From: Lama guanicoe
Taxonomy: Eukaryota
DNA length: 64,000 bases
Assembly: GCA_013239625.1 (NCBI GenBank)
Contig: MU053758.1
Span: forward strand, 3,767,490 to 3,831,489
Reading direction: 5' to 3'
A program made the translations under genes and the position numbers. The notes beneath the pieces are model-generated. The model did not search any database. It was not told the origin of the DNA and worked only from the letters and a program-made list of their open reading frames with translations. Below are positions 41,475-44,117 of the stretch, one piece after another (positions within the stretch are counted from its first letter, which is position 1; each line of letters begins with the position of its first letter).

Positions 41475-44117
41475 TCAGGGCTTGGAGCTCTGGACCTGGC
41501 AGAAGCTGGGCAAGTCCTGCTCCTTCAGGATGGGCCGGGTCTGGCGGCCAGAGGAGGATGGCAAGGAGGAGGAGCAGACTGTGGGAGAGATGGGAGGCGG
41601 GGAAAAGGGATCTGGGAGCTTAGCAGGCCCCACCCAGTGTGAGGGGGGAGGGCTGGGGGTTCTAGAGACCCTCAGGAGCCTTACCTGCCCGGTAAGGACG
41701 TAGGCTGGGAGGAGAGGCTATGTTGGAGAAAAGGCAGAGCAGTGAGATGTGCTGGGAGCGGCAGGGGGGTCGCTGATGGGCCTGTGGGGCAGGGGAGCAC
41801 GGAGCACTCACAGGGCGTCCTCGCCCTCCAGCAGGCGACAGTAGGTGGCCACCTCCTGCTCCAGCAGGGTCTTCACGTCCAGCAGGATCTTGTATTCCTG
41901 GTTCTGCTGCTCCATCTCGCAGCGCAGCTGGGCCAGCTGCTCCTGATCAGCTCCTGGATCTGGGCCAGCTGCAGACAGTAGCGGTTTTTGGTCTCCTCCA
42001 GGCTGTTCTCCAGGGATGCTTTCTATGAACGGCAGAGAGAGAAGAGTCAACCAAGGTGGTCACTGCTGTCCCCCTGTCCAGGTCTCTGTGCACATTTCCT
42101 GAGAGGTGCATGGATTTGGACCTGAGCTGGGCTACTGATGGGCAAGACAATGTGGAGAAAAGTTATCCCACCATTTGTTCTGGACCTTAATTTCTCCATC
42201 CATTTAATGGGTACAATGATACCTCCAACTCACTCCTGGGAAAAGAGAGGTGGAACTGTAGTGGGGCAGTGTTCCATTCCTGGTGACTTGGGGGCTGGGC
42301 CTGGGCTGTCCTTCACATCATGCAGAGCTGGGACTGCAGTCCGCTCTCCAGGCCCTGGAGAGCCCTCCGGAGCTCGTTCACCTCATTCAGGTGCTCCGCT
42401 GCAACTCACTGTTAGAGGCCACTTCTTTGTTCAGCCCCTCCGCTGAGATAGGAAAGAACAGAAGGTGTGAGGTGCTCCGGAGGCACCCTGGCTGGGAAGT
42501 CCCGCAGGAGGGCTGAGGCCCCGAGTCCCACCTCGCACAGGAAGCAGGCCTCAGCCTCTCTGCGGTTCTTCTCCGCCATCTTCTTGTACTGGTCGCACAT
42601 CTCATTCAGGATGCGCTTGGGTCCAGGCCGGGGGCGGTGTCCACCTCCACGCTGACACCCCCCGGGTCTGGCTCCATGGGGCAAGCATCTCCTAGGAAGG
42701 GATGGGTGGTCAGCCGGGCCCCAGGTGTACCTGCAACCCTCCTGGACCAGCCTCCCACTGCCAGCAGCAACCCTACCTCCTCGTGGCTCTTCCCCAGGTA
42801 GGCCAGCTCCTCCTTCAGGCCCTCAATCTGCATCTCCAGGTCGGCTCTGGCCAGGGTCAGCTCGTCCAGCACCCTGCGCAGGCCGTCGATGTCGGCCTCC
42901 ATGCACTGGCCCAGGGCCAACTCATGCTCAACCTGGTAAGACAAAGGTCAGGGCTTCAGGGTCCAGCGTGAGGCTTCTGAGACTCAAGACAGCCCTCCTG
43001 GATGGACAACCCCACTGCTCAGCCCCTGCCCTCTGCTCTCTGCCTTCCCCTCACCACAGGGCTGCTCACTTGGCCCTGAAGTCATTGGCCGCCTGTCGGG
43101 CACTGTCAATCTACAAAACAGGCTGTGCTTTCTTGACAGTGGCCACGACGATCTGCAGAGGGGCTGAAGGAAGGACGCCTGGTTAGCCAAGGCCCTGCTG
43201 CTCAGGGTGAATAGCAAAGACGGGAGATAGGAACCTCCCCAATCTTGGGGGTCATCTGGCTGGTAGGTCAGAACTTCCACTCCCCCAAACAGCCTGGGAT
43301 GCCTTCTCTACCCAGCTCAGCATGTGTAGAGGATGCACCCCACATCTCCACCACCCCATCCTGGGCCCGAGGCTGAGAGAAGCTGAGTGCAAAGAATGCT
43401 TGCAGGGAATAAGAGATTCAGGGTACCAGGCCCACTCAGATGCCTTGATGCTGAAAAGGGACCTTCTGCCATCAATTCTAAGTGGCCCAGGGCCACTCCC
43501 CAAAGGCAGACCTCAGGCTCCCTGTAAAATGGAGATGCCAGCAAGCAGTTTGCTAAGGGCCACTGCAGCCACAGCCTCTATCAACACTCCACCACCAGAG
43601 CCACCCACCTGGCCCACCCACCTTGTCCCTCGAGTCCTCGATGGTCTTGAACTAGGGGCTGTATTCACAGGTGGGCTGGGCCCCTGATCCTGGTACCAGT
43701 CTCGGATCTTCACCTCCAGGTCAGCATTGGCCTCCTCCAGGGCGCTCACCTTGTCCAGGCAGGAGGCCAGGTGGTCGTGGAGGTTCTGCATGGTCACCTT
43801 CTCACTGCCCACCAGGAGCCCATCACCACCACCAAAGCCACCACCCAAGCCAACACCATATACTCCACCAAAGCCGCCACCCAGGGCCCCAGGAAAGCCA
43901 CCACTGCTGCTGCTGAAGCCACCGCCAGAGCCACCCCCAGCCCACAGGTTCCCCTGGAAGAGTAGCAGGAGGTGGTGACAGACAGGCCCCCATAGGCACT
44001 GGGGGCCTGGCAGGAGCCTCTGGCCAGGACAGAGGACATGCGGCTGGAGCCACCACCAATGCCACGGGAGCCCTTCACGGAGCCGGAGGAGGTGAACTGG
44101 TGGCTGCAGGTGGTCAT
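41475..44117 (-). pseudogene. KRT16: Keratin 16 unitary pseudogene (8 exon remnants, many lesions)
   Basis: Exon remnants: 44117-43622, 43152-43070, 42932-42777 (156 vs 157 nt), 42691-42532 (160 vs 162), 42442-42319 (124 vs 126, donor GT>AT), 42022-41812 (211 vs 221), 41717-41685, 41578-41475. K16-specific peptides: AQPVL, EHELAL, EMLA, LNKEVASNSEL, GRQTRPILKEQ. TAG stops at 43652-43654 and 43111-43113. Syntenic between KRT14 and KRT17. Confidence 0.93.

Follow-up and report, generated by a model that had tools for sequence, protein, structure and literature searches.

We analyzed a 64-kb stretch of the Lama guanicoe genome (contig MU053758.1 of assembly GCA_013239625.1), hereafter called the window, which covers the distal end of the type I keratin cluster and carries all its genes on the minus strand, in the order KRT9, KRT14, KRT16 locus, KRT17, and KRT42-like. 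The ancestral, intron-containing KRT16 of this window is likely a long-fixed camelid unitary pseudogene, and its loss one case of an artiodactyl-wide decay that is not specific to padded feet. KRT16 is a disease gene, for pachyonychia congenita and palmoplantar keratoderma, and its product K16 is a standard marker of stressed epidermis; natural K16 knockouts can reveal which of its roles are replaceable.

Lesions of the KRT16 locus

Genes were assigned by self-BLAST, by tblastn with named K16 and K14 proteins, and by a scan for exons of canonical length (83/157/162/126/221 nt for exons 2-6, bounded by AG...GT). The locus at 41475-44117 is identified as the KRT16 orthologue because it is flanked by KRT14 and KRT17 on the same strand, retains the K16-type tail GRQTRPILKEQ in exon 8, and has K16 and K14 of other mammals as the best protein matches of its first 59 codons (117 matches among 195 candidates, with best identities of 85-87%). 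KRT14 and KRT17 of the window each end in a different tail of their own. Three in-frame exon pieces of the locus matched the Pfam Filament domain (PF00038), with scores of 45.7, 48.9, and 55.0 bits where 40 is the cut-off. The exon plan of the KRT14/16/17 group was also recovered, with homologous splice sites and lengths of 83/156/160/124/211 nt for exons 2-6, which differ from the canonical ones only by deletions.

To locate the lesions, we used our own frameshift-tolerant protein-to-DNA aligner with the intact K16 of cat (P0026), horseshoe bat (P0014), and hare (P0067) as references. The lesion list was identical against all three, and the exon lengths agreed. Seven of the eight exons are broken, by about 10 frame-disrupting insertions or deletions, two premature TAG codons, and one GT>AT splice donor. 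The features of the locus are as follows.

41475..44117, minus strand: KRT16 unitary pseudogene, ATG through ancestral TGA, remnants of eight exons, introns present
44117-43622, minus strand: exon 1, 496 nt, ATG intact
43152-43070, minus strand: exon 2, 83 nt (canonical length), CAG>TAG (Gln lost) at 43113-43111
42932-42777, minus strand: exon 3, 156 nt versus 157, one base lost in the first full codon (42930-42931)
42691-42532, minus strand: exon 4, 160 nt versus 162, a net loss of one base at the G run ~42658-42664 and of one base at 42619-42620
42442-42319, minus strand: exon 5, 124 nt versus 126, donor AT in place of GT at 42318-42317
42022-41812, minus strand: exon 6, 211 nt versus 221, 10-nt deletion at ~41943-41944
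41717-41685, minus strand: exon 7, 33 nt versus ~47, ~14 nt missing
41578-41475, minus strand: exon 8, K16-specific tail SSSLPSSSGRQTRPILKEQDLPSFCQVQSSKP, TGA at 41477-41475
~44211-44217, minus strand: degenerate TATA box, GTTTGAGG (TTTGAGG), where KRT14 and KRT17 have (G/C)TATAAAG
41342..41347, minus strand: polyadenylation signal AATAAA, retained

In exon 1, a base is lost in the G run at 43934-43938, which is also directly visible when exon 1 of KRT14 in the window is aligned to it at the nucleotide level, and the frame that starts at the ATG ends at a TGA (43796-43794) after 107 codons. Further into the exon, the helix-initiation motif LNDRLASY has become LHDHLASC (43782-43759), another base is lost at 43673-43674, and a TAC>TAG change at 43654-43652 replaces a Tyr codon by a stop. 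The first codon of exon 5 is short of one base (42442-42441), which places a single-base loss at the exon 4/5 junction, and a further base is lost at 42391-42392. Exon 6 carries an Arg>Cys substitution in the helix-termination motif, which reads TYCRLLEGE (TGT at 41840-41838). The ~47 nt expected for exon 7 was derived from the length of the cat, bat, and hare K16 proteins together with the window's splice sites; the exon being ~14 nt short, the frame into exon 8 is broken. The start codon, the 5′ untranslated region (5′UTR), and all splice sites except one are kept. Upstream, no TATA-like word was found within 283 nt of the KRT16 ATG; the TATA boxes were compared by aligning the three upstream regions (KRT14, KRT16, and KRT17), and this promoter alignment is approximate. 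Because a frame break or a stop occurs in every exon but the last, a donor is lost, and the TATA box is degenerate, the locus is predicted to be incapable of encoding a K16 protein.

An earlier, sequence-only reading of this stretch had called KRT16 dead in a probable camelid genome. Our alignments to the three references bear out the dead gene, and each lesion it named was recovered at, or a few bases from, the place it gave, including the stop of the shifted frame at 43794 after 107 residues. Its list was right but incomplete, having missed the exon 7 deletion, the degenerate TATA box, and the Arg>Cys change in the helix-termination motif. It had also taken the flanking KRT14 and KRT17 to be free of lesions; both read clean, as does KRT9.

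19551..23751, minus strand: KRT14, intact; exon 1 open, exons 2-6 of 83/157/162/126/221 nt and open, tail ...HEQVLRTKN followed by a stop
50056..55098, minus strand: KRT17, intact; exon 1 open, exons 2-6 canonical and open, expected C terminus followed by a stop
7023..11555, minus strand: KRT9, reads intact; exons 1-6 open, tail matches at 7256-7023

The camelid origin proposed by that reading also stood. Exons 1-6 of KRT9, which encodes a palm- and sole-specific keratin, matched Camelus K9 (P0180), the best named match, at 403 of 419 residues (96.2%) without gaps. In a search with exon 1 of K9, the best named match was again Camelus K9 at 320 bits, followed by a match of 262 bits at 64% identity. 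The window is therefore camelid but not Camelus and, with Lama and Vicugna as the only other living camelid genera, probably South American. KRT14, which evolves more slowly than K9, was uninformative here: in a protein database clustered at 90% identity, the best 120 of 1998 matches to its exon 1 included no named camelid. Independently of K9, several K16 features that the window shares with the ruminant and peccary K16 models place it in Artiodactyla.

The broken copy is the only K16 in the assembly

The assembly searched comprises 2.05 Gb in 55,231 contigs and may be incomplete. A DNA search returned 55 matches, among which the sole full match was the locus itself and the rest were paralogue exons at 66-92% identity; a protein search with the cat K16 returned 101 matches and no second K16. 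The check for an intact KRT16 elsewhere in the genome, which the sequence-only reading had proposed, thus yielded none in this assembly. Judged by these searches, the broken copy is the only K16 within the assembly, that is, a unitary pseudogene. The human KRT16P1-P3 are duplicated pseudogenes, broken K16-like extra copies beside an intact KRT16, whereas in this camelid the gene at the ancestral locus is itself the broken one and has no second copy in the assembly.

Two intron-less (processed) type I keratin loci were seen in the assembly, at G000:C7321:12375119-12376059 (L009) and G000:C45181:149-495 (L010). Both were rejected as a second K16, their identity to the K16 coding sequence (66-74%) being below that to KRT14/KRT17 (72-80%). 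By this comparison they are retrocopies of another type I keratin and not of K16.

K16 constraint is relaxed in the artiodactyls sampled

K16 was then aligned from 28 non-artiodactyl proteins, six artiodactyl models, and the window translation, in which breaks were written as X. The 28 proteins were picked from 43 candidates carrying the K16 tail motif, with near-duplicates thinned by eye. We scored the rod positions at which at least 93% of these 28 proteins agree, leaving each non-artiodactyl protein out in turn when it was itself scored. The non-artiodactyl proteins deviated at a median of 0.4% of these sites, with maxima of 5.9% (a marsupial) and 4.7% (a slow loris). Deviation in the window KRT16 reached 41 of 240 sites (17.1%); it was 21/249 (8.4%) in the peccary model, 19/249 (7.6%) in musk deer, 28/208 (13.5%) in reindeer, and 23/208 (11.1%), 26/234 (11.1%), and 29/234 (12.4%) in the three models from Bos, yak or cattle. 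By this measure, constraint on K16 is relaxed in every artiodactyl lineage sampled. Of the 41 changes in the window, 35 occur in it alone, five are identical with some ruminant, one is identical with peccary, and none with both, while peccary and ruminants have seven deviations in common. This pattern of sharing fits the accepted tree, in which camelids branch first.

The two stops of the window are not common to the peccary, musk deer, and reindeer protein models, which have Tyr and Gln at these positions. The Bos models (P0088, P0087, and P0116) skip the second half of exon 2, or more, where the window has its TAG; this skip, seen in gene models, agrees with the loss reported for cattle K16 and may point to a parallel lesion. 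We considered whether Bos might carry the same exon 2 stop and rejected it, as it would be at most a parallel one, the musk deer and reindeer models having Gln there.

At the end of exon 1, artiodactyl K16 reads P(R/S)PARDYSP (window 43650-43690; P0044, P0093, P0103, and P0088), versus PSE(V/I/T)KDYSP in other mammals. This patch looks like an old K17-to-K16 gene conversion in the artiodactyl stem.

Known losses of K16 and related keratins

Loss of K16 has been described in cattle and elephant (Ehrlich et al. 2019, Mol Biol Evol 36:328, PMC6367960), in a statement of its Discussion that is based on figure 1 there. In its supplement, Krt16 is entered as "Functional: no" in minke whale, sperm whale, baiji, and orca (tables S1-S4), which makes four of the four cetacean tables that have a Krt16 row; no such row was found in the dolphin table, and manatee is entered as "yes" (table S6). 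As in the window, the gene concerned lies between KRT14 and KRT17 and is broken by frameshifts and stops, with K14, K17, and K6 persisting. The species set of that paper holds no camelid, and camelids bear their weight on a cornified pad, unlike cattle and whales. The camelid case is a new lineage for a known, recurrent loss. Together with the relaxed artiodactyl models, it turns scattered K16 losses into an order-wide pattern.

PMC6367960 was the only evolutionary paper that we found on K16 loss or K16 pseudogenes. Our search, in a library short of most subscription journals, found no publication naming a camelid K16 loss; gene-loss catalogues of large mammal screens lay outside it and may well list one. 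In the text available, two alpaca genome papers list KRT16 in the fibre-relevant chromosome 16 cluster and pass over its state (PMC6593342, PMC6598621), and K16 goes unmentioned in the camel KRT24 paper (PMC6662840; 0 occurrences) and in a 2025 all-camelid comparison (PMC12127551).

Other type I keratins offer parallels. KRT24 of Camelus, found by comparative genomics in a study showing that camelid keratins had been surveyed before, is also a unitary pseudogene in the type I keratin cluster (Ehrlich et al. 2019, Sci Rep, PMC6662840); that loss is limited to Camelus and recent, whereas the K16 wreck belongs to the sister tribe and seems far older. Primates, according to PMC6367960, have lost K42, likewise a lineage-specific loss of a type I keratin.

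Separate losses favoured over one stem event

The known losses and the relaxed models could reflect a single inactivation in stem Artiodactyla that camelids, ruminants, and whales inherited. Every sampled artiodactyl K16 is degraded or relaxed, all have the derived P(R/S)PARDYSP patch, and at five rod sites all three lineages depart from the conserved residue, as such an event would predict. Against it, none of the window's 41 deviations is identical in both peccary and ruminants, and the peccary, musk deer, and reindeer models, with Tyr and Gln at the two TAG sites, are open through the rod. Moreover, the lesions of the four cetaceans, as far as the supplement of PMC6367960 gives them, differ among themselves and from those of the window. 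Among the protein models compared, in which frameshifts are invisible, no inactivating lesion was common to the lineages. We therefore regard a single stem inactivation as unlikely. Since the stops are unshared and no deviation is identical in all three lineages, the alignment favours early relaxation followed by separate inactivations over one inherited lesion.

Age of the loss

On a rough clock, a deviation of 17.1% at otherwise frozen sites corresponds to ~0.08 neutral substitutions per site. Mammalian neutral rates are 1 to 2.2 × 10^-9 per site per year, and at these rates the inactivation or relaxation would be at least 35 million years old. Camels and llamas split 16-25 million years ago. 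As the estimated age exceeds this, the loss of KRT16 most likely predates the camel-llama split, and it would be fixed in all camelids. The sequence-only reading had suggested an old loss in Tylopoda; its age is an estimate, with the load of lesions and substitutions suggesting tens of millions of years, a span over which camelid KRT16 would have been under relaxed constraint.

A link to the foot pads is not supported

The same reading had suggested that the loss could relate to the callused pads of camelids. In such a link, the loss could have caused a permanent thickening resembling keratoderma, or it could have followed from the pad. Krt16-null mice were reportedly described with foot-pad keratoderma by Lessard and Coulombe in 2012. 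This phenotype is also stated in PMC8733776 and, together with the finding of a dead gene in a padded animal, speaks for such a link; the elephant, also cushion-footed, lacks K16 as well, according to PMC6367960. The same source, however, reports that cattle have lost K16 and that it does not function in four cetaceans, and the K16 models of the hoofed peccary, musk deer, and reindeer are relaxed too.

Padded feet appear in camelids only from the Miocene, according to the fossil literature, and the number of substitutions suggests that the decay began earlier. In addition, because KRT9 is intact, sole-type differentiation as such appears not to have been abandoned. A pad-linked loss in Tylopoda is thus quite improbable: the loss of KRT16 is not pad-specific, and the proposal that it explains camel foot pads is not supported. 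The sequence-only reading had itself held that lesions shared with non-padded artiodactyls would remove the pad link; this applies in part, the loss of the gene being shared with them but the two stops not being shared with the protein models.

A possible history of K16 in artiodactyls can be put forward tentatively. K16 might have become dispensable near the base of Artiodactyla, where a stance on the hoof tips held the sole off the ground, and then have degenerated separately in camelids, ruminants, whales, and perhaps pigs; the weight-bearing, cornified pad of camelids would have been rebuilt later without K16, by way of K6/K17, K9, and K14. The role of K16 as type I partner of K6 would be covered by K17, by analogy with dolphin skin, in which K6/K17 take over suprabasal duty (PMC6367960, section 5). 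K14 and K9 would cover the basal and sole layers; with K17, both are intact here. K6 genes are on record for alpaca.

If this history is true, the camelid pad would be a natural, long-adapted K16-null sole, and it would show how sole epidermis can escape the keratoderma of K16-less mouse and man and the interferon and stress signalling that accompany it. In the Krt16-null mouse and in human pachyonychia congenita and palmoplantar keratoderma, the same protein is absent or defective, but the lesions are recent and the animals depend on K16, whereas the camelid loss would be ancient and the lineage does without. Camelids are one lineage that loads soft cornified skin without K16. In practice, camelid annotation, antibody work, and quantitative PCR on "K16" should treat KRT16 as a pseudogene.

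The locus in public sequencing runs

For a check in public data, 283 31-mers of the locus were sampled and looked up in the 24 runs listed, 20 rows of which, from 10 studies, contained any part of them. Near-identity to the locus was found in 14 of the 24 runs, under four organism labels, with 0.91-0.97 of the 31-mers present; one of these runs may come from the animal that was assembled. Because so few 31-mers are missing, most of the lesions should exist in those 14 runs too. Rows under organism label E had 0.25-0.27 of the 31-mers; their kind was guessed, and they may represent a relative or partial RNA cover. DNA rows X21-X24 had at most 0.03 and were given no weight.

Some RNA-labelled runs contained parts of the locus, which bears on whether the remnant is functional, as a stress-induced non-coding transcript or through the 107-residue head-domain peptide. 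Run X15 had 0.28 of the 31-mers, where a fully spliced KRT16 transcript could reach at most 0.43 of the sampled words; X18, X19, and X20 had 0.19, 0.11, and 0.07, shares too small to count as evidence. Only 78 of the 2613 31-mers of the locus (3%) recur elsewhere in the window, so that paralogue transcripts explain about 0.03. These four runs are partly filed as reproductive-system metagenome. The KRT16 wreck may thus still be transcribed despite its decayed TATA box, and the retained ATG, 5′UTR, AATAAA, and splice sites (all but one) would be in keeping with some function. DNA carry-over in RNA-labelled runs is possible, however, and the 107-residue open frame has no Pfam match and ends out of frame. 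Nonsense-mediated decay, moreover, normally degrades transcripts with early stops. With the TATA box decayed as well, a functional remnant appears very improbable.

Errors of assembly or base calling, or a null allele carried by a single animal, can hardly be credited as the source of the lesions: although several lesions lie in G runs and three of the single-base losses in or beside G or C runs, the two substitution stops, the 10-nt and ~14-nt deletions, the donor substitution, and the 41 replacements at conserved sites involve no homopolymer, the equally GC-rich KRT14, KRT17, and KRT9 show no frame error, and 14 runs under four organism labels share 91-97% of the 31-mers, which argues against an assembly error.

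Several points nevertheless weigh against a long-fixed pseudogene within an order-wide decay. The share found in X15 means that the dead gene may still be transcribed, and the 31-mer shares do not tell which lesion is present in which run. The artiodactyl comparison was made with automatic gene models (Ensembl/UniProt and NCBI), which may hide frameshifts or borrow exons; with the peccary and musk deer models open through the rod, K16 may still work in some artiodactyls. The age is an estimate from the substitution load and general mammalian mutation rates. Finally, the 117 matches of the N-terminal search included no camelid K16 protein, which fits an annotation as pseudogene but is weak and no proof.

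Other observations in the window

Beyond KRT17, the window holds part of a further type I keratin gene.

58514 onward to 64000, minus strand: KRT42-like gene, leaves the window, exon 1 cut by the window end

Its exons 2, 3, 4, and 6 are canonical, and its exon 5 is 127 nt long with a +1 frameshift between 59051 and 59040, tblastn splitting this exon into two frames. Cys replaces a conserved Arg in "NACLAADDF" and in "TYRCLLEGE". These features suggest that a second type I keratin gene may be decaying here. Exon 3 is 157 nt in KRT14, KRT17, the KRT42-like gene, and KRT9 alike. Much of the intergenic space between KRT14 and KRT16 is occupied by an AT-rich block (GC 0.35-0.39, ~32000-40000), which is probably an insertion of interspersed repeats.

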